Shown: positions 8,240 to 62,236, counted from the first letter of the stretch. The stretch is 64,000 nucleotides of DNA from Candidatus Moraniibacteriota bacterium (GCA_049303905.1 JBAQNP010000020.1:5584-69583), one strand, 5' to 3'. Made by a program: numbers and translations. Notes: generated from the letters alone by a model not told the origin.

Positions 8240-8863
8240 ATGAAAAATAAAAAAACTATACCAAAACAAAAATCACTTTCAATTATTCCGGACGAAAGAA
8301 TTGTAGGAAAAATATATCTGATTCGAGGAGAAAAGGTGATGTTTGATCGTGATTTAGCGGAGCTTTATGAAGTGGAAACAAAAGCATTGAACAGAGCGGT
8401 TAAAAGAAATATAAAAAGATTCCCAGCTGATTTTATGTTTCAGTTGGATAAAAATGAATCTGAAATATTTTCAAGGTACCATTCTGGCACCTTGAAAGAG
8501 GATGCTAACTTGAAGTCACAAATTGTGACTTCAAGAGATGACAAAAACTTGAGGTACCAAATTGGCACTTCAAGGTCACAAATTGTGACCTTGAAGAAAG
8601 GGCAGAATATAAAGTATCGCCCTTATGTTTTTACCGAACAAGGTGTAGCCATGCTGTCAGCTGTTTTGAAGAGTGAGAGAGCAATTGAAGTAAGCATCCA
8701 AATTGTTCGAGTTTTTATAAAAATGAAAAAATTATTGACTACTCATAAAGAACTGCGAGAAAAAATTGAGAAAATGGAAAAATCGAACAAAGAAAATTTC
8801 ACCCCGTTAGAAATTTTTAAAAATAAATATTATGAAATGGTGGTACATTTATGTTTTGCTTAG
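8240..8863 (+). CDS. ORF6N (KilA-N-like) domain protein
   Basis: 207 aa. N-terminus IRGEKVMFDRDLAELYEVETKALNRAVKRNIKRFPADFMFQL is the canonical ORF6N signature, and the C-terminal YVFTEQGVAMLSAVLKSERAIEVSIQIVRVF is conserved. Has an internal duplicated SQIVT segment. Confidence 0.75.
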   Translation: MKNKKTIPKQKSLSIIPDERIVGKIYLIRGEKVMFDRDLAELYEVETKALNRAVKRNIKRFPADFMFQLDKNESEIFSRYHSGTLKEDANLKSQIVTSRDDKNLRYQIGTSRSQIVTLKKGQNIKYRPYVFTEQGVAMLSAVLKSERAIEVSIQIVRVFIKMKKLLTTHKELREKIEKMEKSNKENFTPLEIFKNKYYEMVVHLCFA

Positions 8864-9162: not shown

Positions 9163-12100
9163 ATGAAAAAGAAACTGAACGCATTGGGTTTAGAGATAAA
9201 GATTAAAATTAAAAATTACTCCAGAATGTTTCTAAAATCAAAAATAAAATTACTAATATTTTTCTTCTCAATAACTGTGTTATTGGTTTTGACGTCGAAT
9301 GATGCAAGTGCTTATACCTGTACTTGGACCGGAACAACTTCTACTGCTTGGGCGATAGCCACCAACTGGTCTGGGTGTAATTCAACTATTCCACAAACGA
9401 CGGATGATGTGGTGATTAATGTTGCTTCAGCCAATCAACCAATCCTTGATCTCATAGGAGGGAAAACAATAAATTCTCTTTCGATCGGATCGACACTAGC
9501 TTCAACCCTTACTCTTTCCAATGGTTTAGTAGATGTTAATGTTAATAAATTAACCATCACTAATAATCTAACTATTGGAGGTTCTGGCACAATTACCAGC
9601 ACCGCCAACACCACCGCCCAAACTCACAGTGTGAATATGTCGGTGGGAGGGAATGTGGGTATTGAGAGTGGGGGGAAGATTGATGTGACGGGGAAGGGGT
9701 TGAGTGGAGGAGCGGGGGGGGCTGTATATACTAGTGGTTCACCCGGTTACCTTATTAATGGTGGCGGTGGCAGCGGTGGCGGTTATGGCGGTTATGGTGG
9801 CAGTTGCGGTGGCGGTGGCGGTTATGGAGGGGCAGGAGGAGGTGGCACTGGCGGAGCAGGCGGAATAGTACATGATCAAGTTGATAATTCTCACCCAACT
9901 GTTCTTGGCTCTGGAGGTGGTGGTGGGTCAGGAGATGGAGCTGGTCATGCTGGGAGTGCAGGTGGCAAAGGGGGTGGATCAATAAAATTAAATGTGCTAG
10001 GAATACTAACTTTGAATTCCGGTAGTGGGATATACTCCAATGGAAGCAATGGAATCAACGGAGGAGCTAGTGGCGGAGGCGGAGGAGGCGCTGGCTCTGG
10101 TGGTTCAATTTGGATCCAAGCCGGAACAATTACTGGCACAGGAACGGTTCGGGCTAATGGAGGAACAGGAGGAACTGTCACTGCTTTTAGTATAACAGCA
10201 ATAGGTGGTGGTGGAGGAGCAGGTGGAAGAATTGCAATTTCAAGCACGAGAGGATTAACAATAACAGCTGCTGGTGGTCTCGGATACGATAGTCTATATG
10301 GCGGAACCGGCACAATATACTACAACGCTTCCGGAATATACACTTCCGAAGTTTTGGATTTTTCTGGAGCTAGAGATTTTACTACATCTGACATTACTAA
10401 ATCAGAACCTGGGACTTCTACAGTAGTAGTTTCACTTCACGGTGGTGACACCGATAATCCAAATGACTGGGCAGACAATTGGACAGTTATAAATGACAAC
10501 GACGACATCTCAGTTTTTGATAATTTCAGATATTTGCAATACAAAGTAGAATTTTCCTTTACTGGTTTGTCGACTGAAGATAAACCTAGTTTGCAAGATA
10601 TTTCAATAAACTATAACGCTTATCTTGACAAAACCCTCACCTCCTCAGTATACAATTCCAATTCCGACGCTAACTTAATCGGAGGAATATCTTGGGATGA
10701 AACTCTAAGCTCAAACACTAACATTAAATTCCAAATCCAAACTTCCGCCGACGGAGTCACTAATTGGTCAGGATGGTTTGGACCAGACGAAACTGACACT
10801 ACATATTTTGACGAAACTGATTCCCCTGACTTTTGCACAAAAACTGATTCAATTGTCACTTGCACAGTAGACGCTATCCCCTCAGCTTTCAAAGACGGAG
10901 CCAATGATCAATACTACCAATACAAAGCCTATCTAGATACTACCGATGGACTGGCTACTCCAACTCTAAATTCTGTCACCGTCACCTACGTAGTCAACGC
11001 CAACCCGGAAATTGAAGCCAGTCAAACTACCGCTGTCCCGGATGCCAATCAAAGAGTTAATGTTTCATATAACGTCCGAGACACCGACTCAGTTTCCGGC
11101 ACCATCACTCCAAGTTTTGAATATTCCCTAGATGGCGGATCTAGTTGGGTATCCATAACTTCCGGTTGTCTTGGTGCTACTGACTTAGCTGCTAAAACAG
11201 TCAATACCACCGAAGAAACTAAAAACAATTATATAACTTACACTGCCGTTTGGACTCCTGCTTGTGAAGCTGGTATCTCCACCACTACTTATGAAATCGA
11301 CGTTCAAATCCGAGTGAGAGCTGATGATGGTCAAGCCGCTAATCGCTATGGGTATGGAACAACAGAAAATTTCACCCTCGACACCAAAGCACCAATTCCC
11401 GACACCAAATCCATTATTATCTCCGCCAGAAAAACTACTGACAACCTCGCTCTCAATGCTGTCGATGATTCAACCAAACAAATGCGAGTAGGATTAGAAT
11501 CAGATCTATCTGACGGAACTTGGATAGACTACAACACTCTAGCTACAATTGATATTACCGACAACCCTGAAACTGCCTATGTTCAATTTCGAGATATCTT
11601 TGGCAACACTTCCGAAATTGAGAGTGTCACTGCTCCTGTTGCTCCTCAAAGCCTGATGATTCAAGACACTTCCAACACTCTTCTTGCCGAACCCGAATAC
11701 CGACTCTTCATAGCTTGGCAAGTACTCGACAATGACCAATACGGAGCATTATTTGATAAATATGTCATCTACCGCAGTGCCGACAATGGGGCTACCTATA
11801 CAGAAGTTCACACTATTTCCGACATCAGCACCAACTATTGGGCTGACAATACTGTAGTAGGAGAAGCCACTTACTATTATCGCGTCACTCACAAAAACGA
11901 CTACGGCATTGAAAGTTTTGGCAATGAATCCGCCTACAGCGACCCAGTCTATGGCAATGCCAACGGAGTTGAAGATGCCGGCGAAGGTGGAGGAGGAACA
12001 TCATCTGTTCCACCGGTTATTTCCAATGTTGCTATTCCCGAAGATTCCATCTATTCCACCCAAGCCACTATCACTTGGGACACTGACACTCTCTCTGACT

Positions 12101-14652
12101 CAACAGTCAAATACAGCGCTGATGCCGGAGTCTTTACTACCGGTAAAGTGATAACCACTTTACGAAACAACGGCACTCCCTACGGACCGCACACGGTTAC
12201 TCTTACCAATCTCAGTCCTAATACTACCTACTATTTCCAAGTTCAATCGGCTGATCAAAATGACAACGAAGCTACTAAACCCCAATCTGGTGATGATGAG
12301 TATCCAGACGGCTACAGTTTCACTACCGATCCTGGGCCACCAATTCATAGTGCTTGGACCACTCGAGTGACCAATCATAGCGCCACCATTGCTTGGAGCA
12401 CTGCCGGCACTCCTCCGGAAACATCCGTACCTTCTAATTCTGTGGTCACTTATTCCAAAAACTTTGACTTAGGCGAACCAACCACCATTGGAGGTTCTGA
12501 TGACTTAGTGACTTATCACGAAGTAACTATTAATGATCTTGATCAAGGAACTCTCTATTATTACCAAGTTCAATCCAGTGACGGCAACTATACTTCAATT
12601 GGAAAAAATGGTGACAGCTATTTCAGTTTCACCACCGACATTGACAACGTCGCCCCAACAATTACTTTCGATCCCGACACCGATATTACTAAAACTGACA
12701 CTACCGCCAGAGTTTCTTGGACAACCTCTAGTGAATCAGCTAGATCAACTCTGGAATATGGTACTGATACTGATTATGATTTAGGTACGCTCACCAATGC
12801 TAATTACAATACTAATCACATTTTTGATTTAGAAGATCTTACTCCAGAAACTACTTACTATATCCGACTTACCTCGACTGATATTAATGACAATGCGACT
12901 GTAGTAAGTGGAAATAGTTTTACTACTTTGGCGATAGCTGATGAGAGTGGGCCGACTATTTCAGACGTGGTAGTGAGTGATCTTAAGTATAATGAAGCGA
13001 CAGTTAGTTGGGAGACAGACACAGCCAGTGATTCTCGAGTGGAATATATTACAGCTACAGGCGGGGATTTTAGTGAGGCACCCTTTGCGGGAATAGCTAC
13101 ATCAAAAAACAACGCATCCGATCTTGGTCTTCACTCTGTAATTCTCTCTGGCCTCAACTCCATCACCACCTACTATTTCCAAGTTAAATCCACTGATCAA
13201 GATGGTAACACTTCTACATTAAAAGAAGGAACCAATGGCTACACCTTCACCACCACCTCCCCAACCACCGACTCTGACTCCAACGGCGAAGGAGATCAAC
13301 TCACCGACATCATGTCTCAAATCCAAGATATGATCGACAACTACTATTTCACCGAAGCCGAAATCCAAGACGCTCTCTCCGGACTCTATTCCATCTCCAT
13401 AACCAGTAGTGGCCCATCTGTAGATATCACTGACACCACCGCTACTTTCACCTGGACCACTAACCGACCAGCTATCGGCAAGATTTACTATTGGCAAGAC
13501 ACTGACAACGAGGACACGGCCGTAAGCCAAGCCGAAAACATCACTGCGGCTAGAACTGACCATGAAATCATAATTAAAAACCTCAACGCTAACACCAAGT
13601 ATAATTTCTACGCTTACTCCGAAGGACTCCTAGGTACCACCACCCAATCAGAAAACAAATCTTTCTCCACGGAAGACACCGCCAGTCTCTCTGGCATCTC
13701 CATTTCCAACCTTACTCTTAACTCCGCCGATATCTCTTGGACCACCACTGGCTCCATTGACTCTTCCCAACTTGAATACGGCGAATCAATTAAATATGGC
13801 AACGAAAACAAAGGTAAAACAGACGGCAATCTCCATACTGTCAATTTAACCAACCTCAAAGAAAACACCACTTACCACCTAAGAGTCACTGCTACCGACT
13901 CTGACGGTCAAACCCTCACCAGTGACGACTACTCCTTCACCACCACTTCTCTCCCCGTAATCTCCAACGTTACCATCAAAGATATCCAAATCGAATCCGC
14001 CACCATTAATTGGCAAACTAACGTCAAAACAGACTCCCGAGTAGAATTCAAAAAAGAAAACCAAGACCAAGGGACTACCACCGGTAAACTCGAAGCAGTG
14101 ACTGACCACTCCTTCACTCTTACCAACCTTTTCCCTGGAACTAGATATACTTTCAAAGTCTCTTCCAAAGACACCTTCAACAATGAATCTAGTAGTGAAG
14201 AACAATCTTTCACTACCAACGAAGATCTCAACGCTCCCCAAATCACCAACGTTAAATCTGACACCACCGTCTTTCCTGGTAAAGAAGCTCAAATCCAAAC
14301 CATCATTAGTTGGAATACTGACAAAGATTCTAATTCTATCCTGGCTTACCGCGAAGGAGTCGAAAAAGACCCTAACCTAATTGACCAACTTAAAAACCCT
14401 GACATAACTAAAATTGATAACTGGAAACTAATCAAAAAACAAGATCTCACCAAAAACCATCTCTTTGTCCTGACTGATCTAAAACCTGCCAGTGTCTATC
14501 AATTCAGAACTGCTTCATATGACAAACACAACAATGTCTCAGTCTCAGAAAACTATTCCTTACTCACCCCCACTAAACAACAATCCGTCCTAGATCTCAT
14601 CATCCAAAACTTTGAATCTACCTTTGGATGGGTGAAGAGGATTGGGAATTAA
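9163..14652 (+). CDS. Giant cell-surface protein (1829 aa) with N-terminal TM/signal, a glycine-rich (GGxGG)n module and about 10 tandem Fn3-like domains
   Basis: N-terminal hydrophobic segment. Residues about 190-330 are Gly repeats (GGGGSGGGYGGYGG...). Repeated units of about 90 aa follow the pattern ATITW.T...S.V.YG......LT.L.P.T.YYFQV.S.D..N. C3-rich codon usage is unlike neighbouring genes. Reverse-strand Pro-rich ORFs here are artefacts. Confidence 0.8.
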   Translation: MKKKLNALGLEIKIKIKNYSRMFLKSKIKLLIFFFSITVLLVLTSNDASAYTCTWTGTTSTAWAIATNWSGCNSTIPQTTDDVVINVASANQPILDLIGGKTINSLSIGSTLASTLTLSNGLVDVNVNKLTITNNLTIGGSGTITSTANTTAQTHSVNMSVGGNVGIESGGKIDVTGKGLSGGAGGAVYTSGSPGYLINGGGGSGGGYGGYGGSCGGGGGYGGAGGGGTGGAGGIVHDQVDNSHPTVLGSGGGGGSGDGAGHAGSAGGKGGGSIKLNVLGILTLNSGSGIYSNGSNGINGGASGGGGGGAGSGGSIWIQAGTITGTGTVRANGGTGGTVTAFSITAIGGGGGAGGRIAISSTRGLTITAAGGLGYDSLYGGTGTIYYNASGIYTSEVLDFSGARDFTTSDITKSEPGTSTVVVSLHGGDTDNPNDWADNWTVINDNDDISVFDNFRYLQYKVEFSFTGLSTEDKPSLQDISINYNAYLDKTLTSSVYNSNSDANLIGGISWDETLSSNTNIKFQIQTSADGVTNWSGWFGPDETDTTYFDETDSPDFCTKTDSIVTCTVDAIPSAFKDGANDQYYQYKAYLDTTDGLATPTLNSVTVTYVVNANPEIEASQTTAVPDANQRVNVSYNVRDTDSVSGTITPSFEYSLDGGSSWVSITSGCLGATDLAAKTVNTTEETKNNYITYTAVWTPACEAGISTTTYEIDVQIRVRADDGQAANRYGYGTTENFTLDTKAPIPDTKSIIISARKTTDNLALNAVDDSTKQMRVGLESDLSDGTWIDYNTLATIDITDNPETAYVQFRDIFGNTSEIESVTAPVAPQSLMIQDTSNTLLAEPEYRLFIAWQVLDNDQYGALFDKYVIYRSADNGATYTEVHTISDISTNYWADNTVVGEATYYYRVTHKNDYGIESFGNESAYSDPVYGNANGVEDAGEGGGGTSSVPPVISNVAIPEDSIYSTQATITWDTDTLSDSTVKYSADAGVFTTGKVITTLRNNGTPYGPHTVTLTNLSPNTTYYFQVQSADQNDNEATKPQSGDDEYPDGYSFTTDPGPPIHSAWTTRVTNHSATIAWSTAGTPPETSVPSNSVVTYSKNFDLGEPTTIGGSDDLVTYHEVTINDLDQGTLYYYQVQSSDGNYTSIGKNGDSYFSFTTDIDNVAPTITFDPDTDITKTDTTARVSWTTSSESARSTLEYGTDTDYDLGTLTNANYNTNHIFDLEDLTPETTYYIRLTSTDINDNATVVSGNSFTTLAIADESGPTISDVVVSDLKYNEATVSWETDTASDSRVEYITATGGDFSEAPFAGIATSKNNASDLGLHSVILSGLNSITTYYFQVKSTDQDGNTSTLKEGTNGYTFTTTSPTTDSDSNGEGDQLTDIMSQIQDMIDNYYFTEAEIQDALSGLYSISITSSGPSVDITDTTATFTWTTNRPAIGKIYYWQDTDNEDTAVSQAENITAARTDHEIIIKNLNANTKYNFYAYSEGLLGTTTQSENKSFSTEDTASLSGISISNLTLNSADISWTTTGSIDSSQLEYGESIKYGNENKGKTDGNLHTVNLTNLKENTTYHLRVTATDSDGQTLTSDDYSFTTTSLPVISNVTIKDIQIESATINWQTNVKTDSRVEFKKENQDQGTTTGKLEAVTDHSFTLTNLFPGTRYTFKVSSKDTFNNESSSEEQSFTTNEDLNAPQITNVKSDTTVFPGKEAQIQTIISWNTDKDSNSILAYREGVEKDPNLIDQLKNPDITKIDNWKLIKKQDLTKNHLFVLTDLKPASVYQFRTASYDKHNNVSVSENYSLLTPTKQQSVLDLIIQNFESTFGWVKRIGN

Positions 14653-15920: not shown

Positions 15921-16862
15921 ATGAATTGGATAGGTATTGCTATTATTGCATATTTTCTTTTGGCACTGGAAATTGTTCTGGACAAATTTTTGCTTTCTTC
16001 CAAGCGCGTTTCTCATCCTGCTATCTATGCTTTCTATTCTGGAACGATGGGGATGTTTGTAATTCTTCTAATTCCTTTTGGTTTTCATTGGATAGGTTTA
16101 TCCAAAATTATCTTGAGTTTTATCGCAGGAATCGTTTTCATTTACGGGATGCTTTCCCTTTTTTGGGCAATTAAAAGAGGAGAGGCGAGTCGAGTACTCC
16201 CTATTGTGGGCGCGGTTGTGCCGATTGTATCCTTTTTTCTAGCTATAATTTTTCTGGGAGAAAATTTAGGTCTCAGAGGTATTCTTGGTATCAGTGCTTT
16301 GATTTTTGGTGGAATATTAATTTCTTTTAATTTAGCTAAGAATAGAGCAAGAATATTTTTTGAGGGTTTTCGTGCTTCAATTTTAGCTGGATTTCTTTTA
16401 GCTGTTTCAACAATTATTATCAAAGCACTTTATAATGAAGACAGTTTTATAAATGTTTTTGTCTGGACAAGAACAGGCGCATTTTTGGGAGTATTGAGTT
16501 TTTTCTTGATTCCTATTTGGCGAAAACCAATTTTAGAGTCGCTATTAAAATTTAAAAAATCTGAAAAAGAAGAAAAAAAATCTGGCGCTTCTTTTGTTCT
16601 AGCTAAAACACTCGGCGGAAGCGGATCATTTCTCAAAGAAAATGCAGTGTCAACATCCTTGGCAAGTGTGACCGTAGTGAATGCCTTGGTCTCAGTAGAG
16701 TATGTTTTTATTTTTATTTTGAGTATTATCTTCTCTGCCTGGATGCCAAAAATAATGCGAGAAGAAAAAGATTTTAAGATAATAGTTCAAAAAATTATAG
16801 CTATTGCTATTATTACTCTCGGATTAATTTTAGTTTCTTCACCCTATGGAGTACGGGCATAG
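15921..16862 (+). CDS. Integral membrane protein, DMT/EamA-like transporter fold
   Basis: 313 aa, about 10 predicted TM helices, two-half organisation. Confidence 0.6.
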   Translation: MNWIGIAIIAYFLLALEIVLDKFLLSSKRVSHPAIYAFYSGTMGMFVILLIPFGFHWIGLSKIILSFIAGIVFIYGMLSLFWAIKRGEASRVLPIVGAVVPIVSFFLAIIFLGENLGLRGILGISALIFGGILISFNLAKNRARIFFEGFRASILAGFLLAVSTIIIKALYNEDSFINVFVWTRTGAFLGVLSFFLIPIWRKPILESLLKFKKSEKEEKKSGASFVLAKTLGGSGSFLKENAVSTSLASVTVVNALVSVEYVFIFILSIIFSAWMPKIMREEKDFKIIVQKIIAIAIITLGLILVSSPYGVRA

Positions 16863-16917
16863 TGATAAATAAGAATTTAAATTAGATTTATTTTTTTAAC
16901 ATTAACTGTGGTTTATC

Positions 16918-17967
16918 GTGAAATTACTCCATGGGGTAAAGTCCTTAAATATGAAATATATAAAAAAATTTTTAAGAATTCTTGGTAAAACAGTCGTGAT
17001 TATTTTTGTTGTGATTCTAGGTTTTTTTGTTTATTTTAATATTCCTGTGAGCGATCAAAATGATCGGGCGAAATTGGGCGTAACTTTTTCTAGTCGTTAT
17101 GCGACAAATATTGGGTTGGATTGGAAAGAAGCCTATCTGGCAATGTTGGATGATCTGGAAGTGAGAAGTGTGCGGTTGCCGGTTTATTGGGATTTAGTGG
17201 AAAAAAAGGAAGGTAATTTTGATTTTTCTGAAGTGGACTGGCAACTGGAGGAAGCGCAAAAAAGAAATGTAGATGTTATTTTGACAATTGGACAAAAAGT
17301 TCCGCGTTGGCCAGAATGTGCTATTCCGGATTGGGCGATGACCAGTGATCAAAAAAGAAAAGACTCTCTTTTGAATTTTATTTCAGTGGTGATGGAGCGG
17401 TATAAAAATAATCCGGAGATAAAATATTGGCAAATTGAAAATGAACCATTTTTGCTTTTTGGCATTTGTCCGGCGCCGGATGCAGATTTGCTTGACAGCG
17501 AAATTTCACTGGCTCGAAAAATTGATGATAGTCGGAAAATAATTGTTTCAGATAGTGGAGAATTGAGTTTGTGGGTGCGAGCAGCCAGAAGAGCGGATGT
17601 TTTTGGCACGACGATGTATCGCAATGTTTATAAAGAAGGTTGGGGTTATTATTCCTATCCAATCGGACCACGCTTCTTTCGTTTCAAATACGGTCTTATT
17701 AGTCTTTTCGCGGAACAAAAAAATGCCATTGTGGCGGAACTGCAAGCTGAACCGTGGATTGCCGGTTGGACAGTGGATGCAACACTCGAAGAACAATTCA
17801 AATCAATGAATGAGGAAAAATTGAGAGGGAATGTGACTTATGCTCGGCAAGTTGGTTTTCCGGAAATTTATCTGTGGGGTGTGGAATGGTGGTATTGGCT
17901 GAAAGTAGAAAAAAATTATCCGGCAGTTTGGGATACCGCTAGAGAATTATTCAATGAAGTTAAATAA
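16918..17967 (+). CDS. Membrane-anchored glycoside hydrolase, TIM-barrel, GH5-like clan
   Basis: N-terminal TM. WQIENEP catalytic-acid motif and RLPVYW region. The ATG at 16951 (MKYIKK) is a more likely start than the GTG at 16918. Confidence 0.65.
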   Translation: MKLLHGVKSLNMKYIKKFLRILGKTVVIIFVVILGFFVYFNIPVSDQNDRAKLGVTFSSRYATNIGLDWKEAYLAMLDDLEVRSVRLPVYWDLVEKKEGNFDFSEVDWQLEEAQKRNVDVILTIGQKVPRWPECAIPDWAMTSDQKRKDSLLNFISVVMERYKNNPEIKYWQIENEPFLLFGICPAPDADLLDSEISLARKIDDSRKIIVSDSGELSLWVRAARRADVFGTTMYRNVYKEGWGYYSYPIGPRFFRFKYGLISLFAEQKNAIVAELQAEPWIAGWTVDATLEEQFKSMNEEKLRGNVTYARQVGFPEIYLWGVEWWYWLKVEKNYPAVWDTARELFNEVK

Positions 17968-21432: not shown

Positions 21433-21606
21433 ATGATGAAAAATTATAGTGATATTTTGGTGGGGCTTTCAGTTTTAGCAGTATTGATTTCTGGTTATGA
21501 TTCTCTTTACCAAACAAATGTTTTGAATTTGGCGGGAACACAATGGATGTTGATTGCTTTGGTTTTGGGCGTGTATGGAATTTACGCTAAAATGCGAATG
21601 AACTAA
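21433..21606 (+). CDS. Small hydrophobic protein (57 aa), not in the ORF track
   Basis: ATG 11 nt downstream of ggaggtg. MMKNYSDILVGLSVLAVLISGYDSLYQTNVLNLAGTQWMLIALVLGVYGIYAKMRMN has two predicted TM segments. Confidence 0.45.
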   Translation: MMKNYSDILVGLSVLAVLISGYDSLYQTNVLNLAGTQWMLIALVLGVYGIYAKMRMN

Positions 21607-21659
21607 CGCGATGCGAATTTTGCGAACTGACATGCGAATCTACGAATAAAATAAATACA

Positions 21660-23906: not shown

Positions 23907-24295
23907 TTGTGGAGATGATGGGAATTGAACCCATGTCCAAAGCTATTCATCTAAAATCCTCTACAAGCTTAGTTAGTTTGTTTAGGTTGGAAGTTATGAA
24001 CTAACAAAATATTCCAACCTTTTTTCTAGTTTAATTTTACTAAATTTGCCTAGAAAATGCAATTTTAGCTATCCTAATGTATAACACCGAGCTCTATCTA
24101 TTAGGAGTGGATAGTTCGATGGCCTCGGCAATTAAGCCAAAGCGTAGGCAAAGTTAGCTGAGAAAGCTTGCGCAATCGCAGTTTTTGCTTTTGAAAATAA
24201 GTTTGCACTTATTGATTTGGTAAAATTTTAACGAGTGATTACCATTCTCGGCTTGCATATTTTAAACGTACAACTTGTCGAAACCAAACATCCCC
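23907..24295 (-). ncRNA. ssrA: tmRNA (SsrA), one-piece
   Basis: The 5' end GGGGATGTTTGGTTTCGACAAG (reverse complement of 24274-24295) matches the tmRNA 5' consensus. The 3' end has T-arm atggg-ttcaatt-cccat and acceptor strand catctcc pairing with ggggatg, including a G3:U wobble. An internal frame reads GCA AAA ACT GCG ATT GCG CAA GCT TTC TCA GCT AAC TTT GCC TAC GCT TTG GCT TAA (tag ending ...ANFAYALA). Sits directly downstream of smpB. Confidence 0.8.
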
Positions 24296-24297
24296 AT

Positions 24298-24744
24298 TTA
24301 TAAATTTTTGAGGATTCGTCTCATTCCTCTCTCGTCTTCTCTTTTCTTGATTTTATCTCGTTTGTCGTATTCCTTTTTGCCTTTTCCGAGACCAAATTCC
24401 AGCTTGATGAGACGTCTTTTAGTATATAATTTAATTGGCACTAATGTCAAGCCTTGGGTGCGAGCTTTGCCAATTAAATGCTTTATTTCTGATTTCTTGA
24501 GCAGAAGCTTTCTTGGGCGAGTCGGATTATGATTGTCGAGCTTGCCAGCGTGAATATAGGGCGGAACATGGGCATTAGTTAAATACAATTCATTGCCATG
24601 GATTGTCACAAAAGACTCTTTGAGGCTCACATGCTTGGTTTTTATCGATTTTACCTCATGACCAAAAAGCTCAATCCCGGCTTCATAGTTTTCCAGAATC
24701 GCATAATCGAAATTCGCGCGCTTGTTTATAGCTAAAATACTCAT
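24298..24744 (-). CDS. smpB: SsrA-binding protein SmpB
   Basis: 148 aa, ...NKRANFDYAILENYEAGIEL.G.EVKS... is typical of SmpB. Confidence 0.9.
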   Translation of the reverse strand: MSILAINKRANFDYAILENYEAGIELFGHEVKSIKTKHVSLKESFVTIHGNELYLTNAHVPPYIHAGKLDNHNPTRPRKLLLKKSEIKHLIGKARTQGLTLVPIKLYTKRRLIKLEFGLGKGKKEYDKRDKIKKREDERGMRRILKNL

Positions 24745-25495: not shown

Positions 25496-26317
25496 ATGGT
25501 AAATAAGATATATCATAAGGTTAAAAGCGTTCTATTTTCAGACCCTAAAGAATTATACAAAGAAGAGCATGGTTTATTAAAAGAACCTTTTTATTTTCCT
25601 GGCACTAATGGCAAGGCGGTTTTGCTTATCCATGGCTGGACATCTGTGCCATATGAGCTTCGACGACTTGGAAAATATCTCAACGAAAATGGCTATACTG
25701 TTTTTGGGCCGATGCTTCGTGGACACGGGACAACTTCAAAAGATTTGGAAAATGTTTACTGGGAAGATTGGATGTGCGATGCCAATAAGGCCTATGAAGA
25801 GTTGGCTAAAAATCACAAAGATATTTATGTGTCAGGAACTTCCATCGGAGCTAATCTCACAGTGATGTTGGCAAAAAATAAGCCAAAAATTTCAGGGATT
25901 ATCCTTATGGCGATGCCGTATAAAGTTAGGCTTGAGAAATTGGGAGAAATTATTTTGAAATTTTTTAATATTTTTATAAAATATGGACGGAAATTTTATC
26001 CACCTTTCTTTGGAAGTCCGCGTCTAATTACTAGAAGAATTTCCTATCGAACATATCCGATTAAGAGCGTCTTGGAAGTCGCTAAGCTTATAAAAATTTC
26101 TCGGCAGGAAATTCCCAAAATTACACAGCCTTGTTTCGTGATGCAATCAAGCAGTGATAGTGTTGTTTCGGGAAATAGTTTAGAAAAAATTTATGAAAAA
26201 ATAAGTTCTAAAGTCAAAGAAAAAAAATATATTCACAAAGCTTACCATACTTTTATTTCTGACATTAGAAACGAGCATATTTTTCAAGATATCCTTGATT
26301 TTATAAACAATAACTAG
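25496..26317 (+). CDS. Alpha/beta hydrolase (esterase/lysophospholipase-like)
   Basis: VLLIHGW...GHG and the nucleophile elbow GTSIGA. Confidence 0.7.
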   Translation: MVNKIYHKVKSVLFSDPKELYKEEHGLLKEPFYFPGTNGKAVLLIHGWTSVPYELRRLGKYLNENGYTVFGPMLRGHGTTSKDLENVYWEDWMCDANKAYEELAKNHKDIYVSGTSIGANLTVMLAKNKPKISGIILMAMPYKVRLEKLGEIILKFFNIFIKYGRKFYPPFFGSPRLITRRISYRTYPIKSVLEVAKLIKISRQEIPKITQPCFVMQSSSDSVVSGNSLEKIYEKISSKVKEKKYIHKAYHTFISDIRNEHIFQDILDFINNN

Positions 26318-26371
26318 CGATGCCAATCTACGAATGCATGCGAATGCCACGAATAATTTCGCATCATTCGC

Positions 26372-27724
26372 ATGAAATTCGCATTGTTCGTATCGCTTAT
26401 GCGTATTGCAATTTTTACTAATAACTATTTACCTAATCCCTATGGCGTGACGCGGTCGATTGAAACATTTCGACGCGAGATGGAAAAACAGGGGAATGAG
26501 GTCTTTATTTTTGCTCCGTACTGGAAAAATTATAAGGATGTCAATAAAAATGTTTTTCGTTTTCCTTCATTTGATATTGAAATTAAATTTCGCTTTCCTT
26601 TGGCGATTCCATATTCCTGGAAAATTGATAAGATAATAAAGAATCTTGATCTGGATGTGATTCATGCTCAGCATCCCAATCTTCTTGGAAGCGTGGCAAT
26701 GAAATGGGCGAAGAGGAAAAAGATTCCCTTGATTTTTACTTGGCACACTCTTTATGATCAATATACTAATTTTGTGCCGTTTGTCCCAGCAAAAATTTCG
26801 GCCGGATATATTATCAAAAAAGCGGTTAAATTTGCTAACTTGGCGGACGCCGTAATTGTGCCGACAGATTCAATCATTCCAATTATTCGAAAATGGGGGG
26901 TGAAAAATTGTCATCCTGAATTTACCTTGCCTACCGGCAGGCAGGTTTCAGGATCTAAAAAAGAGATGCTGAAACAAGTTCAGCATGACAGAATATATGC
27001 TATCCCGACAGGAGTTCTTGAGGAAGAATTTGAAAATCCTGATAGAAATAAAATAAGAAAAAAATATAATATAAAAGATGATGAAACTGTTCTGTTTATG
27101 GTTTCCCGATTAACTGCGGAAAAAAATGTTGAATTTATTTTTCGATCAATTAAGAATATTCTAGCGGACAGTCCGCTAGAGGGCGGACTGTCCGCGCTTA
27201 ATGTTAAATTTCTAGTTGTAGGAGATGGGTATCTCAGGAATAATTTAGAAGAATATTGCCGACGGGAAAATATTTCAGAAAAAATAATTTTTTGCGGAGA
27301 AGTAGAAAGGCAAGAAATTAAAAATTATTTTGCTTCTGCGGATATTTTTGTCTATGGCTCAAAATCAGAAACGCAAGGAATGATAATCACCGAGGCGATG
27401 TATATGGGGCTCCCAATCGTGGCAGTTTCGGCGACCGGGATAAATAGTTTAGTTTTGAATAATGGCAATGGATTTTTAGTAGAAGAAAATTCACCCTGTG
27501 GAATACCGCTACGCGGTAGCGACAAAGTCGCTATTCCACAGGGCGAGAAAGAATTTGAAAAAGCAGTTTTTAAATTGATTAACGACAAAGATTTACGAAA
27601 AAAATTTGGCGAAACTTCCGCGCGTATCGCTAGAATTAATTTCACCTCTTCGATTTGCGCCGAGAAAATTTTGAAAGTTTATAATAACCTTATTGAAAGT
27701 AAAAAAAGACATTATTCTAGATGA
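26372..27724 (+). CDS. Glycosyltransferase family 4 (GT-B, group 1)
   Basis: The C-terminal domain has GSKSETQGMIITEAMYMGLPIVA (the EX7E region). The true start is probably MRIAIF at 26399, because the first 9 codons lie inside a gcgaat-repeat array. The CDS holds three different palindromic insertions (26909-26990, 27160-27196, 27493-27545). Confidence 0.8.
   Translation: MKFALFVSLMRIAIFTNNYLPNPYGVTRSIETFRREMEKQGNEVFIFAPYWKNYKDVNKNVFRFPSFDIEIKFRFPLAIPYSWKIDKIIKNLDLDVIHAQHPNLLGSVAMKWAKRKKIPLIFTWHTLYDQYTNFVPFVPAKISAGYIIKKAVKFANLADAVIVPTDSIIPIIRKWGVKNCHPEFTLPTGRQVSGSKKEMLKQVQHDRIYAIPTGVLEEEFENPDRNKIRKKYNIKDDETVLFMVSRLTAEKNVEFIFRSIKNILADSPLEGGLSALNVKFLVVGDGYLRNNLEEYCRRENISEKIIFCGEVERQEIKNYFASADIFVYGSKSETQGMIITEAMYMGLPIVAVSATGINSLVLNNGNGFLVEENSPCGIPLRGSDKVAIPQGEKEFEKAVFKLINDKDLRKKFGETSARIARINFTSSICAEKILKVYNNLIESKKRHYSR
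26909..26990 (+). repeat. Double-hairpin element family 2 copy, in-frame inside the GT4 gene (encodes CHPEFTLPTGRQVSGSKKEMLKQVQHD)
   Basis: tgtcatcctgaattt...ttcaggatc...gagatgctgaaacaagttcagcatgaca. The same element is intergenic at 31308, 40896 and 53703. This copy also carries an inner ccggcaggcagg palindrome. Confidence 0.7.
27160..27196 (+). repeat. GC-rich perfect 13-bp hairpin (gcggacagtccgc-tagagg-gcggactgtccgc) in-frame in the GT4 gene
   Basis: Seen directly. Encodes LADSPLEGGLSAL. Confidence 0.6.
27493..27545 (+). repeat. Composite palindrome ccctgtggaata...tattccacaggg (family 5) in-frame in the GT4 gene
   Basis: 12-bp terminal inverted repeats enclose two inner palindromes (gctacgcggtagc, agcgacaaagtcgct). 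The same terminal repeat bounds a 94-nt region upstream of glmS. Confidence 0.6.
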
Positions 27725-29976
27725 ATTTTTTCTGAAAACTTTTTAAGGGAATCAGCTATTAGCGGATGCTCTTTTAACTTGGGATCGTTTTCTAATAAAT
27801 ATGCGGCTTCGGCACGGGCGAATTTAATGAGTTTTGTATTGCCTAAATTTTCCATAGCAATATCAGGCAAGCCTGATTGAATGGTGCCAAAGAATTGTCC
27901 TGGACCACGTAATTTCAAATCATGCTCAGAAATTTCAAAACCATCATTGGTTTTTTCCATTATTCTTAAACGCGTAGGGACTAAGCCCCCAATTGGGGAC
28001 TTAGTCCCTGAATTGGCAAACAAAAAACAATAAGATTGCTCTTTTCCTCGTCCAACTCGTCCGCGAAACTGATGCAATTGGGTGAGACCAAATCTCTCGG
28101 CGTTTTCAATGACTATTACAGTTGCATTGGGAATATCGATGCCAACTTCTACTACAGATGTAGAAACTAAAATATCAAAATTTTTATTTTTAAAATCTTC
28201 CATCACTTCTTCTTTTTCTTTAGCTTTCATTTTCCCATGAAGAAGCCCAAGCTTAAATTCAGAAAATATAACTTGGGATAATCTCTCGTGTTCCTCTTTG
28301 ACGGCTTTGACATCGATCATACTTTCAGAAAGTGATTCCTCGACTAATGGCAAAATAACAAAAGCTTGTCGACCTTTTTTTATTTCACTGCGAATGAAAT
28401 CATAGACTTTTTCTCGATCATTCGGGGTAATTATTTTAGTAATAATATTTTTTCTATTTTTAGGCATTTCATCTAAAATTGACAAATCTAAACTGCCAAA
28501 ATAGGCGATGGCCAGCGTTCGTGGAATTGGCGTAGCGGTCATAGTTAAAAGATGGGGGATAACTTTTTTATTCCCATCATCGATATTCATAGTTTCACTT
28601 TGGAGTGTTGCGCGTTGATTGACGCCAAAACGATGCTGTTCATCGATAATCACCAGTGCTAGATTTTTAAATCGAACATCTTTTTGAATTAGCGCGTGAG
28701 TGCCGATAACTAACTGCACTTCATCTGTTTGGATAGATGATAGCAACTCAGAGCGAGTTGTGTTTTTTATAGTTCGAGTATAATTTTTAATTTTCAATTT
28801 GCAATTTTCAATCAATTTTAAATTTTCAATTTTCAAATCTTGATTTACTTTTGGTTCTGAAATTAATTTATATGAGCTAGTTAACAAAGCTATTTTTATA
28901 TTGTAATTTTTAAAAATATCACAAAAACTTTCAAAATGTTGGCGAGCCAAGACTTCTGTTGGCGCCATAAGAGCCGTTTGATATCCGGCGGAAATTGTTT
29001 GTAGTGCGGAAATGGCGGAAACAATTGTTTTTCCAGAACCAACATCACCATTAAGCAGTCGATTCATGGGGCATGGTCTTTCTAAATCTTTCAAAATTTC
29101 GAAAGTTGCCTTTCTTTGAACGTCAGTGAGCTTGAAGGGTAATTCGAGCGTGAATTTCTTAATTAATTTTTCATCAAATTTTATTTTGTTAGAATCTTTT
29201 TCTTTCCAGTTTTTTCTAATTTCCAAAGTTCTGATTTGCACTAGAAACATTTCTTGAAAGGCCATTCTTTTTTGGGCGCGAATAAGCTTTTCCATATCAT
29301 CAGGGAAATGAATTTGCGAGAGGGTAGTATAGATATCGGATAGATTATATTTTTTTCGAATTTCAATAGACAAAATATCAGGTATATTTTTAGCTAAAGG
29401 CAAGAGGGTTTTTATCTGCCAGCGAATCCATTTGGAAGTTATGCCGGAAGTTTCACTGTAGATTGGGACGAGTCTTCCAGTGTTAGTGGCATCGCGAGTG
29501 GATTTTTCAAAGGCAGGATTACTCATAGAAAAATATTTCCCGCCTCGCGCCTGCCTCGCCGAGTCAAGGCGGGTCGACGAGCAGTTGTCTCCGCGAGTCG
29601 AGGCGGGCCCACTCATTCCAAGTTTTCCAGAAAATCTTGCGGTGGAGCCAATGGGAAAATTTTCTAATATATAAGGCTGATTAAACCATACAGCCTTGAG
29701 AAGATTTCCATTTTGATCCTCGAGGACGATTTCCGTGATGGTCATTTTTCGACGAAAGAGTCGATTGTTTTTGGCTTTGATAATTTTGCCTTCGACTGTA
29801 ATAGCTTGCCCAACGAAATCATTTGAAAGCGAAACGGTTTTGGAAAAATCATCATAACGAAAAGGAAGATATAATAAAAGATCTTTGATTGTAAGAAGTC
29901 CGAGTTTTTCCAAAACACGGATATATTTAGGTGTAATGCGGGGGACAGATTTTAGTGAAGTGTTTATGTCTAGCAT
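27712..29976 (-). CDS. recG: ATP-dependent DNA helicase RecG
   Basis: 754 aa with the wedge domain and helicase motifs (DVGSGKT, DEQHRFGV). Contains in-frame insertions: a nested family 1 GC palindrome (29539-29608) and an AT-rich attttcaa repeat block (28783-28838). Confidence 0.9.
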   Translation of the reverse strand: MLDINTSLKSVPRITPKYIRVLEKLGLLTIKDLLLYLPFRYDDFSKTVSLSNDFVGQAITVEGKIIKAKNNRLFRRKMTITEIVLEDQNGNLLKAVWFNQPYILENFPIGSTARFSGKLGMSGPASTRGDNCSSTRLDSARQARGGKYFSMSNPAFEKSTRDATNTGRLVPIYSETSGITSKWIRWQIKTLLPLAKNIPDILSIEIRKKYNLSDIYTTLSQIHFPDDMEKLIRAQKRMAFQEMFLVQIRTLEIRKNWKEKDSNKIKFDEKLIKKFTLELPFKLTDVQRKATFEILKDLERPCPMNRLLNGDVGSGKTIVSAISALQTISAGYQTALMAPTEVLARQHFESFCDIFKNYNIKIALLTSSYKLISEPKVNQDLKIENLKLIENCKLKIKNYTRTIKNTTRSELLSSIQTDEVQLVIGTHALIQKDVRFKNLALVIIDEQHRFGVNQRATLQSETMNIDDGNKKVIPHLLTMTATPIPRTLAIAYFGSLDLSILDEMPKNRKNIITKIITPNDREKVYDFIRSEIKKGRQAFVILPLVEESLSESMIDVKAVKEEHERLSQVIFSEFKLGLLHGKMKAKEKEEVMEDFKNKNFDILVSTSVVEVGIDIPNATVIVIENAERFGLTQLHQFRGRVGRGKEQSYCFLFANSGTKSPIGGLVPTRLRIMEKTNDGFEISEHDLKLRGPGQFFGTIQSGLPDIAMENLGNTKLIKFARAEAAYLLENDPKLKEHPLIADSLKKFSEKIHLE
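29539..29608 (+). repeat. Family 1 GC-rich palindromic element, nested/duplicated copy, in-frame in recG
   Basis: cccgcctcgcg + cctgcctcgccgagtcaaggcggg + tcgacgagcagttgtctccgcgagtcgaggcggg. On the - strand it encodes PASTRGDNCSSTRLDSARQARGG. Confidence 0.75.
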
Positions 29977-31307: not shown

Positions 31308-31371
31308 TGTCATCCTGAATTTATTTCAGGATCTAAACAATAGAGATGCTGAAAGCAAGTTCAGCATGACA
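31308..31371 (+). repeat. Double-hairpin element family 2 copy (intergenic, between the nif3-like and M16 genes)
   Basis: tgtcatcctgaatttatttcaggatc...gagatgctgaaagcaagttcagcatgaca. Confidence 0.7.
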
Positions 31372-36674: not shown

Positions 36675-37539
36675 GATCGATACCCATGCTCATCTAAATT
36701 TCTCTGCATATAAAAATGATGCGGAAGAAGTAATTGGAAAAACTCTCGCGGAGGGTGTTTTTGTGATTAATGTGGGGTCGCAATATTCGACTAGTGTGCG
36801 GGCGGTGAAGTATGCCAAGAAGTATAATGGGCTATATGCGGCAATTGGAATTCATCCGCTTCATCTTCAGGCGCAAAAATTTTCCTATCATGACCCAGAT
36901 GAAATTGAAGAGGTGGAAATTGAAACAGCTGGAGAAATTTTTGAAAAAGAAAAATATTTGGAATTGGCTAAGAATTCAAAGGTGGTGGCGATTGGAGAAG
37001 TTGGTTTAGATTATCATCATTTCGACCCGCCTCGCGTCGACGAAGCGTCTCCACGAGTCGAGGCGGGTGCCGAGGATAACATTGAAAAATTAAAAGAAAA
37101 GCAGAAAGAAATATTTTTAGAATTTATCAAACTGGCGAATGCTGTGGAAAAACCGATCATGATTCATTGTTGGGACGCCTATGACGATCTATATGAAATG
37201 CTGGAAAAAAATCCAGTAGAGAAAAGAGGTGTGATTCATAGTTTTGTAGGAAGCTATAAAACTGCTAAGAAATTTATCGAGCTTGGCTATTTAATTGGAC
37301 TTAACGGTATAGTGACTTATGGGATAAGTTATGATAAGCTTATTCGCGAAGTTGATTTACGAAATATCATTTTAGAAACGGACTGCCCCTATCTTACTCC
37401 TGTGCCAAAAAAAGGTGAGAGGAATGAGCCGATGTATGTGAAATATGTTGCAATGAAGATAGCGGAAGTTAAGGGAATTCCATTAGAAGAAGTGGAGAAA
37501 ATAACAACAGAAAATGCTAAAAAATTATTTGGAATATAA
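36649..37539 (+). CDS. tatD: TatD family metal-dependent hydrolase
   Basis: IDTHAHL at the N-terminus (likely start ATG 36670), GEVGLDYH motif. Carries a 14-aa in-frame insertion, PPRVDEASPRVEAG, from a GC palindrome. Confidence 0.85.
   Translation: MLHVSCFMLIDTHAHLNFSAYKNDAEEVIGKTLAEGVFVINVGSQYSTSVRAVKYAKKYNGLYAAIGIHPLHLQAQKFSYHDPDEIEEVEIETAGEIFEKEKYLELAKNSKVVAIGEVGLDYHHFDPPRVDEASPRVEAGAEDNIEKLKEKQKEIFLEFIKLANAVEKPIMIHCWDAYDDLYEMLEKNPVEKRGVIHSFVGSYKTAKKFIELGYLIGLNGIVTYGISYDKLIREVDLRNIILETDCPYLTPVPKKGERNEPMYVKYVAMKIAEVKGIPLEEVEKITTENAKKLFGI
37026..37067 (+). repeat. Family 1 GC-rich palindromic element (42 nt) in-frame in tatD
   Basis: cccgcctcgcgtcgacgaagcgtctccacgagtcgaggcggg, 14 codons exactly. 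Confidence 0.75.
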
Positions 37540-40895: not shown

Positions 40896-40964
40896 TGTCA
40901 TCCTGAACTTGTTTCAGGATCTCCGAAACTAAGTACGAGATTCCGAAACAAGTTCGGAATGACA
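40896..40964 (+). repeat. Double-hairpin element family 2 copy (variant) downstream of atpH
   Basis: tgtcatcctgaacttgtttcaggatc...gattccgaaacaagttcggaatgaca. Hairpin B arms have changed (ccgaa instead of gctgaa) but the inverted repeat is preserved. Confidence 0.65.
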
Positions 40965-41063
40965 TAATAGAGATAGAAGTTCTTTGGAAAATTAAAAATA
41001 AAAAAGCCACGTCATCCTAATAATACAGGAATCAGTGGCTTTCGGCTGGCGAGGCGACGATAA

Positions 41064-43014: not shown

Positions 43015-43108
43015 TCTTTACTAATTACGAATCAAGTACGAACATAACTAATAAAAAAATTCGTAATTCGTATATTAGTAAATAATTAGTAATTCGTAAA
43101 GAAAAGCT

Positions 43109-44068
43109 ATGGCTTCAGGTAAAGAAATTAAAAGACGAATAAAATCCATTCAGAACACCGGAAAAATTACTCGGGCAATGGAAATGGTGAGTGCGGCTAA
43201 AATGCGCCGAGCTATTTCAAGTGTGCTCGCAATCAGACCATATGCTCATAGCGCTTGGAGTGTGCTTACGAATTTAGCGCGTTCATTTAGGGAGAAGCAA
43301 GACGGTTTATTAGCTGTGCGTGAAGTGAGGAGTGTTTTGGCAATCGCAATCACATCGAACCGCGGACTTTGCGGATCATTCAATTCTCAATTGACAAAAA
43401 AAATCAGAGAGGAATTGGCGAGTCCGAAAAATTTGAAAATAAATCGAATCGGTAACAAAAAAATAGAATCAAAAATCACTGATGAAGAATTGAAAATCGA
43501 TTTTATTACTGTCGGTAGAAAAGGTGAGAATGTTGTGAAGAGAACCGGCAAGGAAATCATCGCCTCATTTAATGATTTGACCTATTTGCCAAAATTTGAA
43601 GCCGTGCGAGCAGTAGGAAAGGTCGTAATTGATGATTATTTGGGCAAAAAATATGACAAGGTAGTTATTTTCTATACTGATTATGTTTCCGCTATCAAGC
43701 AAGAAACAAAAGTGCGCCAAATTTTGCCACTTTCAAAGATTGATTTGGAAAAACAATTAGCTGAAATGGATGTTTTGGCGGAAGAATACGGACTTAAAAA
43801 GCCAAAATCTGAATATAAAGTTGAGCCGAGTCCGGAGGAAGTTTTGGATCATATTATCCCGCGTCTCATTGAAATGCAGATCTATCATGCAATTTTGGAA
43901 TCGAATGCTTCCAAAGAATCCGCCCGAATGGTTGCTATGAGAAATGCCACCGATGCTGCCAAAGAAATGGCCGATGATTTCACTCTGGCCTATAATCAAA
44001 TTAGACAGATGAAAATTACTCAAGAGATAGCGGAGATTAGTGCGGGGATGGCGGCATTAGAACAATGA
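43109..44068 (+). CDS. atpG: ATP synthase F1 subunit gamma
   Basis: IKRRIKSIQNTGKITRAMEMVSAAKMRRA N-terminus and C-terminal helix. Confidence 0.9.
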   Translation: MASGKEIKRRIKSIQNTGKITRAMEMVSAAKMRRAISSVLAIRPYAHSAWSVLTNLARSFREKQDGLLAVREVRSVLAIAITSNRGLCGSFNSQLTKKIREELASPKNLKINRIGNKKIESKITDEELKIDFITVGRKGENVVKRTGKEIIASFNDLTYLPKFEAVRAVGKVVIDDYLGKKYDKVVIFYTDYVSAIKQETKVRQILPLSKIDLEKQLAEMDVLAEEYGLKKPKSEYKVEPSPEEVLDHIIPRLIEMQIYHAILESNASKESARMVAMRNATDAAKEMADDFTLAYNQIRQMKITQEIAEISAGMAALEQ

Positions 44069-44640: not shown

Positions 44641-46080
<1,440 letters not shown>

Positions 46081-51745: not shown

Positions 51746-51856
51746 AAATTCACCCCAGTGGAATACGGACTTATAAAATAATCAAAATTAAATTAAATTT
51801 ATTTTTTAATATCGCTTCGGGTTTAATATATTATTATTCCACGGGGTAAAAATATT

Positions 51857-53702: not shown

Positions 53703-53775
53703 TGTCATCCTGAATTTATTTCAGGATCTTCTAAGGGCGCTTAATTGAGATGCTGAAAACAAGTTCAGTATGACA
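53703..53775 (+). repeat. Double-hairpin element family 2 copy, immediately downstream of glmS
   Basis: tgtcatcctgaatttatttcaggatc...gagatgctgaaaacaagttcagtatgaca. Confidence 0.7.
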
Positions 53776-53789
53776 GACCTTTTAATTTT

Positions 53790-54170: not shown

Positions 54171-54332
54171 AAAAGTTGTTTGGCTTTTTTCCTTACGAAT
54201 TACGAATTTATTACAAATATACGAATGTACGAATAATTAAAAGAATGGGAATGGGTTATTATTTTAAGGTCAAAACTTTATCGATAAAATTGAAATAGGC
54301 TTTATTTAAGGCAAAAAATATATAGAATAATT

Positions 54333-62125: not shown

Positions 62126-62137
62126 GCTTTACGAATT

Positions 62138-62178
62138 ACCCGCCTCGCGTCGACGAGCGTCTCCGCGAGTTGAGGCGG
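62138..62178 (+). repeat. Family 1 GC-rich palindromic element, intergenic copy between parA and parB
   Basis: cccgcctcgcgtcgacgagcgtctccgcgagttgaggcggg. Confidence 0.75.
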
Positions 62179-62236
62179 GCGAATTTATACGAATTTACAA
62201 ATAATTTGGTAATTAAAATATTTTAAAATAAAAATT

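Follow-up and report, generated by a model that had tools for sequence, protein, structure and literature searches.

Probable in-frame invasion of a GT4 glycosyltransferase gene of Moranbacteria by dispersed GC-rich palindromic repeats

How can one bacterial gene carry several palindromic elements and still read through as an intact open reading frame? This question is raised by a locus in a 64,000-nt stretch of DNA (in the following, the window), in which an ORF listed at 26372..27724 (+) encodes 450 aa without interruption. The answer which we consider probable is that a working GT4 glycosyltransferase gene has been invaded four times by dispersed GC-rich palindromic repeats, which measure 21-82 nt in this gene, while a fifth element has entered the upstream junction. 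The features concerned are the following:

26318..26398, no strand assigned: palindromic 'GCGAAT/ATTCGC word' element of 81 nt, filling the junction between hydrolase stop and GT4 start
26399..27724, plus strand: GT4 glycosyltransferase gene, likely true extent, 441 aa (Pfam, GT-B fold, orthologue N-termini, dN/dS, synteny)
26909..26990, plus strand: insert 1, family-2 element, net +81 nt, encoding CHPEFTLPTGRQVSGSKKEMLKQVQHD; loop site D after helix 166-174
26925..26945, plus strand: nested mini-palindrome ccttgcctaccggcaggcagg, 21 nt, inside insert 1 and adding 7 codons
27164..27195, plus strand: insert 2, two inverted 13-mers GCGGACWGTCCGC with a 6-nt loop, net +27 nt, encoding ADSPLEGGLSAL; loop site E
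27491..27544, plus strand: insert 3, Y-shaped element, +54 nt, encoding SPCGIPLRGSDKVAIPQG; loop site F between strand 367-370 and helix 390-404

That the ORF reads through over 450 aa and encodes a GT4 enzyme, as stated in an earlier note made from the sequence alone, is confirmed by the ORF listing, Pfam and fold comparison. Two Pfam domains score above the gathering score, Glyco_transf_4 at aa 25-179 (E 2.2e-25) and Glycos_transf_1 at aa 224-375 (E 2.5e-32). An AlphaFold (AF2) model built on 31 homologues (pLDDT 81, pTM 0.82) predicts a protein of two Rossmann-like domains with GT-B fold, and its best Foldseek matches are MshA, BshA, GlgM and PimB' (E 1e-23 to 1e-19; TM-scores on the target of 0.75-0.83 for these top matches, with MshA/BshA ranging from 0.65 to 0.83). 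GT4 enzymes are retaining glycosyltransferases whose signature is an EX7E motif in the C-terminal domain. This motif is kept as SETQGMIITE, the E333 and E341 of which (numbered on the 450-aa ORF) do not vary among the 31 aligned sequences, and S332-E333...E341 belong to the invariant residues retained in the window protein. The best NCBIfam match, alpha-monoglucosyldiacylglycerol synthase (NF049988), reaches 143.5 bits, far under the equivalog cut-off of 400 bits, and a specific substrate is therefore not assignable. All closest homologues, with approximately 70-73% identity, derive from MAGs of Candidatus Moranbacteria / Parcubacteria; judged by these best homologues, the host would be an uncultured, ultra-small bacterium of the Moranbacteria (CPR/Patescibacteria). 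The gene order SmpB - VTT - alpha/beta hydrolase - GT4 - RecG is kept in six relatives, hence their GT4 genes are regarded as orthologues. A second intact GT4 paralogue, which the same note had proposed to look for, was not found by phmmer within the window.

The true gene is probably shorter than the listed ORF, the first nine codons of which fall inside the spacer at 26318-26398. This spacer holds five GCGAAT/ACGAAT-type words, and its inverted arms at 26337-26353 and 26358-26374 contribute to a fold with a z-score of -4.4. The orthologues all begin at the Met corresponding to ATG 26399 (M10 of the listed ORF), and seven out of ten close relatives have a junction of zero length, at which the stop codon of the hydrolase touches or overlaps the GT4 ATG. 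Going by these sequence comparisons, the fifth element has most likely given rise to the nine-codon N-terminal 'extension' as an artefact of ORF calling, and the true start would be ATG 26399. In L006, the same junction is occupied by a related 58-nt array, and in L010 by a different GC palindrome. The suggestion of a repeat-derived N-terminal extension thus stands insofar as the first nine codons do lie in the word array, but these codons are probably not part of the protein.

Within the gene, three palindromes had been described from the sequence, namely a family 2 double-hairpin (26909-26990), a perfect 13-bp GC hairpin (27160-27196) and a composite palindrome (27493-27545), and all of them were recovered. 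Insert 1 carries the terminal inverted repeats TGTCATCCTGAA / TTCAGCATGACA, and the folding energy of a 91-nt stretch is -34.8 kcal/mol (z -5.7). The arms of insert 2 (27164-27176 and 27183-27195) are 13 nt long and 100% complementary, giving a fold of -31.1 kcal/mol (z -7.1); the hairpin pattern was matched five times against 0.23 expected matches. In insert 3, an outer inverted repeat, (TT)CACCCTGTGGAATA...TATTCCACAGGG(T), encloses two inner hairpins. Its arms at 27494-27505 and 27532-27543 match perfectly along 12 nt and, when extended, to 89% along 18 nt, and the element folds at -33.4 kcal/mol (z -6.9). For each of the three inserts, none out of 200 dinucleotide shuffles folded as well. 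Inserts 2 and 3 moreover form local GC peaks of 0.55-0.65 in an AT-rich window with a GC content of 36.6% (0.37). Element end sequences are TTCACCCTGTGGAATA and, for insert 1, the above TGTCATCCTGAA.

Alignment with homologues, which had been suggested for locating the segments relative to the fold, identifies all three as true insertions. Inserts 1-3 face gaps in most sequences of three alignments comprising 31, 121 and 81 homologues (the last being species-level orthologues), orthologues are typically 381-388 aa long, and the alignment with BshA places a gap at insert 2. When syntenic orthologues are aligned codon by codon, the empty sites have exact boundaries, and the window gene gains 81, 27 and 54 nt net at the three sites, together with the nested 21 nt. 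The lengths of all four inserts are multiples of three, and all are stop-free. In the AF2 model, inserts 1-3 all lie in coil between secondary-structure elements, with insert 2 following helix 261-264, and some segments of inserts 1 and 3 (184-187, 192-195, 197-204 and 375-381) have a pLDDT of less than 50. They are hence predicted to sit in surface loops compatible with the fold; the predicted insert-junction peptides are NCHPEFTLPTGR, ILADSPLEGGLSALNVK and ENSPCGIPLR.

The copies found elsewhere bear on the origin of these segments. Family 2 is represented four times in the window, and the three copies outside the GT4 gene are all intergenic (31308-31371, 40896-40965 and 53703-53777). Site D is also filled in L001/P0002, where 61 of 63 nt are identical to insert 1 of the window, which is nearer to this GT4 copy (97%) than to its paralogues in the window (about 92%). 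The nested palindrome ccttgcctaccggcaggcagg is missing from the otherwise near-identical L001 copy as well as from the three intergenic family-2 copies of the window and is therefore interpreted as a later insertion into insert 1. Its core, CCTGCCTRCCGGYAGGCAGG, is scattered over many Moranbacteria loci, some of them within long ORFs, and the element is related to 'LARRRGG/LACRRG' inserts at GT4 site C. The nested palindrome had not been recorded in the earlier note.

Insert-2 type elements fill site E in five other species (L006, L015, L024, L016 and L027), with loops of 6-22 nt. A single 13-mer is present at this site in L019, and a non-GT4 copy of the element occurs in L077/L009. In the copies whose 13-mers are intact, those of the window, L006, L015, L024 and L027, the two units are oppositely oriented (A..T or T..A). 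An apparent 'compensatory A..T to T..A swap' in insert 2 was initially a candidate for covariation, but is better described as 13-mers in opposite orientation.

Insert 3 shares 52 of 54 nt with the copy at the same site in L005. Its ends were found in 49 metagenome stretches, mostly intergenic and with no common context, and members of the family lie in frame in RecG, UvrB, a DegT aminotransferase and a tRNA-editing protein (tRNA_edit). About half of the family copies fold as an outer stem with two inner hairpins. Inserts of the type 'HPVKSP..FNRV', located at GT4 sites D and E in other species, carry TTCACCCTGTTAAAT ends and, on account of these, look like members of the insert-3 superfamily in another reading frame. 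A further family, family 1 ('PASTRG'), is found in frame in TGT, TatD and RecG of the window and at GT4 site A elsewhere. Rfam, searched in gathering mode over the whole window and in E-value mode over 26250-27800, gave no match on the elements.

Alternatively, the segments could be native, lineage-specific linkers or loops of a GT4 subfamily instead of repeat insertions, as the earlier note had also considered. Their location in loops of variable length among GT4 enzymes is in line with such an origin. However, the segments are missing from most close orthologues, where the empty sites are precise, they form GC-rich palindromes within an AT-rich gene, and near-identical or same-family copies are present in intergenic DNA and in unrelated genes. 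The dispersed copies refute the native-linker reading, which we hold to be very improbable.

How far this gene is special in accepting insertions can be judged from its orthologues. In 22 of 81 species, 26 internal insert events of at least 6 aa were counted, falling into approximately six site clusters, and all six are loop positions in the model. Every one of the 26 events is in frame, none of the 81 orthologous genes is interrupted, and across species the same GT4 loop sites are reused by three different element families. Only the GT4 gene of the window has three sites filled (121 + 81 homologues). Such inserts were absent from the neighbouring hydrolase (0/60 orthologues) and VTT (0/42 orthologues), whereas RecG next door is hit at a rate similar to that of GT4 (0.090 vs 0.083 insert events per species per 100 aa). 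The hot spots therefore represent tolerant loops and a genome-wide behaviour not peculiar to GT4. Based on the window only, the enrichment of three inserts in one gene has a raw P of about 0.002, which becomes about 0.1 after correction for 54 genes, and it is thus not counted as evidence. The description of this gene as an insertion hot spot is hence correct with regard to the recurrently used loop sites and the empty hydrolase and VTT genes; an exceptional status of GT4 is contradicted by RecG, and the window test is non-significant after correction.

A gene loaded in this way might also be a decaying pseudogene whose frame has survived by chance, the second of two options left by the earlier note. 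In favour of decay, four foreign inserts in a gene of 1.3 kb are more than any of the 121 + 81 homologues contains. Nevertheless, dN/dS is as low as 0.09-0.17 against nine syntenic orthologues (Nei-Gojobori, 381 codons), all invariant residues of the 31-sequence alignment are present, including those of the catalytic motif, and the model is a confident GT-B fold. Four frame-keeping lengths would arise by chance with a probability of only about (1/3)^4, stops not yet counted, and the same inserts are found in intact orthologues of other species. Taken together with the consistently in-frame orthologue inserts, these data make decay highly improbable. Judged from codon comparison, the GT4 gene is under purifying selection and is a working gene, not a decaying one. 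The other option, a protein tolerating unusual insertions, is the one that agrees with segments which are absent from most homologues and map to coil.

A further reading is that the inserts escape translation, either through excision from the mRNA or because the ribosome skips them, in the manner of the mitochondrial 'byp' GC clusters of Magnusiomyces. The resemblance lies in GC-rich hairpins within an AT-rich genome (PMC8811140). Byps, however, interrupt the frame of a functional gene, whereas every insert in the 81 orthologues is in frame and stop-free. Nothing would impose this on excised or bypassed elements, roughly two thirds of which should break the frame. Bypass or removal is accordingly given very little credence. 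An even smaller probability, practically a negligible one, is attached to an assembly or binning artefact by which repeats were mis-joined into the gene. Although the source is evidently of metagenome type and the exact window protein is not on record in the public collection, the same elements occur at the same codon positions in independent assemblies of other samples (L001/L002, L005 and L006/L077).

The preferred explanation, invasion of a working gene by dispersed repeats, may be envisaged as follows. Palindromic elements would land anywhere in the genome, while within useful or essential genes only whole-codon, stop-free copies in solvent-exposed loops would survive selection; this would account for the piling up of inserts at few loops and for the use of the same sites by different families in different species. 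The inserts would be transcribed and, as we infer from the open frame, translated as additional loop peptides, which are presumed to be neutral. Their mobility would be based on a transposition-like or gene-conversion process. No transposase was noticed near the GT4 gene. The target sites have A/T-rich flanks without a consistent direct repeat, with a possible AAAG repeat in one copy (L029).

The distribution of the elements between species adds a further aspect. Among close relatives, insert 1 is common only to L001, insert 2 only to L006 and insert 3 only to L005. Copy identities with the respective partner amount to 61/63, 37/40 and 52/54 nt (92-97%), compared to a gene-wide nucleotide identity of 75-81%, yielding P values of 3e-6 (insert 1), 0.04 (insert 2) and 4e-4 (insert 3), and this despite dS values between window and partner of 1.85 (L001), 0.76 (L006) and 1.08 (L005). 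The shared copies are far more conserved between species than expected of neutral selfish inserts. In a five-gene NJ tree, in which only three clades have usable support and other nodes are unsupported, each partner has a sister without the element (bootstrap 100, 100 and 76). In addition, one flank of each insert is raised in similarity toward the sharing partner, with 83% vs at most 63% over 30 nt to the right of insert 1, 83% vs at most 67% to the left of insert 2, and 97% vs at most 90% to the right of insert 3, these tracts being short (30-90 nt). The sharing might go back to an ancient insertion that was afterwards lost precisely many times while the hairpin stayed under constraint, to site-specific insertion occurring more than once, or to insert-bearing tracts that were transferred through recombination or gene conversion. 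The data favour some contribution of tract transfer/gene conversion or of structural constraint, without deciding between them, and suggest processes beyond simple insertion and drift, be it selection on nucleic-acid structure, gene conversion or lateral transfer of alleles.

Carried further, this leads to the proposal that the elements are not merely tolerated, but that their nucleic-acid structure is selected or that insert-bearing alleles spread between lineages. Selection could act on an RNA hairpin (mRNA stability, interdomain translation pausing) or on a recombinase or protein site in the DNA, while spread could occur by biased gene conversion or homologous recombination, as for the GC clusters in yeast mitochondrial var1. 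Besides the high element identity at such dS values and the raised flanks, this proposal draws on the patchy, non-tree-like distribution, each insert being shared with a different non-sister relative, and on the opposite orientation of the insert-2 13-mers in five species including that of the window. It also draws on the inner hairpins of the insert-3 family, which covary: in the 52-nt length class, six pairs have changes on both sides and 98% of cells are paired vs 32-45% in slid controls, although few independent lineages contribute and the orientation of the sequences was chosen so as to match the structure. Against it stand, apart from the short flank tracts, the mostly intergenic location of the metagenome copies with no common context and the lack of an Rfam match; moreover, in-frame survival needs no function. 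On balance, the proposal is rated as rather unlikely, and it is compatible with the invasion of a working gene by dispersed repeats, not exclusive of it. More specifically, and somewhat more doubtful still, the palindromic cassettes might be driven alleles in CPR, which pass by homing-like or biased conversion between Moranbacteria lineages or into empty orthologous sites and whose sequence is held by selection on structure. If true, such driven cassettes would constitute a bacterial counterpart of GC-cluster conversion in yeast mitochondrial var1, acting on loops of housekeeping proteins.

Several known systems invite comparison with the invading repeats. The Rickettsia palindromic elements (RPEs) reportedly go back to Ogata et al. 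in 2000. RPEs form dispersed families which are found intergenically as well as in frame in conserved genes, where they encode fold-compatible peptides; they are 100-150 bp long, and several families coexist in a reduced, AT-rich genome (PMC10969869, PMC1779305). In their working principle the window elements agree with RPEs. They likewise form several coexisting families in a reduced, AT-rich genome, occupy several non-homologous loci, both intergenic and genic, and are palindromic, fold-favoured and frame-keeping, lying in loops of a host gene under purifying selection. In contrast to RPEs, they measure only 21-82 nt and reside in Moranbacteria instead of Rickettsiales, they nest, several families reuse the same loop sites, and interspecies copies are unusually conserved. 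Since size and host differ, they fall outside the RPE families proper (RPE-1 to RPE-10). A closer match in size, GC contrast, nesting and possible conversion is provided by the yeast mitochondrial GC clusters. These are short GC-rich palindromes of an AT-rich genome, mostly intergenic with some in frame (var1), which shuffle or nest and whose insertion alleles can spread by gene conversion (PMC8811140). The yeast clusters, however, belong to an organelle and not to a bacterial chromosome as here, and conversion is only a possible parallel in the present case.

Bacterial MITEs with in-frame intragenic copies include ERIC, BOX, Correia and Nezha (PMC10969869). Like MITEs, the window elements are small, exist in several copies and are occasionally fused in frame with host ORFs, and inserts 1 and 3 have terminal inverted repeats. 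Yet, no target-site duplication is clearly seen at the window elements, most MITEs are longer, and neither insert 2 nor the nested element, both of them simple palindromes, possesses distinct repeats at its ends. REPs, on the other hand, are extragenic by definition, and REP/BIME elements are mobilised by RAYT transposases. With REP/BIME the window elements have in common a make-up of GC-rich imperfect palindromes of 20-40 nt, frequently paired in inverted orientation, insert 2 being REPIN-like in this respect; they differ in that the copies studied here are intragenic and that the conserved GTAG-type head was not seen. As no duplication, parent IS or RAYT has been established for the window elements, a MITE or REP label is not yet applicable. 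In general, the elements are an instance of the known selfish in-frame palindromic DNA in another phylum. In open-access text, nothing relevant was found on palindromic or in-frame inserts in CPR/Patescibacteria/Moranbacteria.

Selfish in-frame palindromic DNA of the Rickettsia type is thereby extended to the Candidate Phyla Radiation, with elements which are much smaller and nested. Such inserts lengthen and diversify CPR proteins, seed spurious N-terminal extensions and small ORFs, and can mislead gene callers, homology searches and phylogenies. As a natural map, the recurrent use of loops by different families furthermore shows where the GT-B fold tolerates insertions, and near-identical inserts with non-tree-like distribution at saturated dS provide a handle on recombination or a novel copying mechanism in uncultured bacteria.

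Two other loci of the window carry hairpins as well. A hairpin at 44752-44786 in atpD was considered as a clear insertion and dismissed, the PDB alignment being ambiguous and the loop variable among F1-beta sequences. The hairpins in the ORF at 8240-8863 are presumably native to that protein family.

A further family of GC-rich palindromes (cccgcctcgac...gtcgaggcggg), which encodes the peptide 'PASTRG...', is found in the window in frame in three housekeeping genes (TGT, TatD and RecG) and additionally as one intergenic copy.

'PASTRG' copies in the window
3438-3484, in frame in TGT
37025-37068, in frame in TatD
~29551-29610, in frame in RecG
62136-62180, intergenic

Among the related loci compared with the window, the family also occurs in the glycosyltransferase GT4 of L006/L023 at site A (one of about six loop sites where inserts recur), in RecG of L014/L020/L047 and in SmpB of L010. 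The tmRNA gene directly adjoins smpB in the window (pair at 23907-24295 and 24298-24744, both on the minus strand), an adjacency that is kept in related loci.

RecG, encoded on the minus strand, harbors an in-frame hairpin as well:

27976-28009, hairpin with a 15-bp stem within RecG

This hairpin is ~98% identical to the one that L006/L077 carry at this RecG position, while the window shares its other RecG insert (site 122) with L014 instead. These different partners represent another patchy sharing pattern. A kind of length variation other than GC palindromes is given by the hypervariable, AT-rich and low-complexity linker at RecG core position ~357 (window peptide LKIENLKLIENCKLKIKNYTR), which is filled by unrelated sequence in 23 of the 54 species with RecG orthologues.

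Longer elements of ~95-144 nt carry an AT-rich core between terminal repeats resembling those of insert 3, the Y-shaped palindromic element in the window's GT4, and may constitute a variant of the insert-3 superfamily that carries cargo or a promoter.

Longer elements with insert-3-like ends
Window 16840-16936, directly upstream of a gene start
Window 51752-51846, directly upstream of a gene start
L009 530-625
L077 4855-4998

At the hydrolase/GT4 junction, the window contains a GCGAAT-word element, whereas a different GC palindrome, ggaggctcaacctcc...ggaggttgagcctcc, is located in L010 ~58 nt before the GT4 ATG. Three other GCGAAT/ACGAAT-type word clusters in the window are intergenic:

21594-21642
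43027-43135
54195-54229

Their alignment to the array that precedes GT4 is poor (mean column identity 46%), so that a family common to all of them is unproven.

A perfect palindrome resides in atpD:

44752-44786, 16-bp stem, N-terminal barrel domain of ATP synthase beta

Its status as an insertion is ambiguous when the protein is aligned to solved structures. A strongly folding score is also displayed by an ORF of 1829 aa (9163-14652) with GC-rich, Gly-rich repeats (GGSGGGYGG...), probably reflecting repeat-protein coding rather than inserted palindromes.
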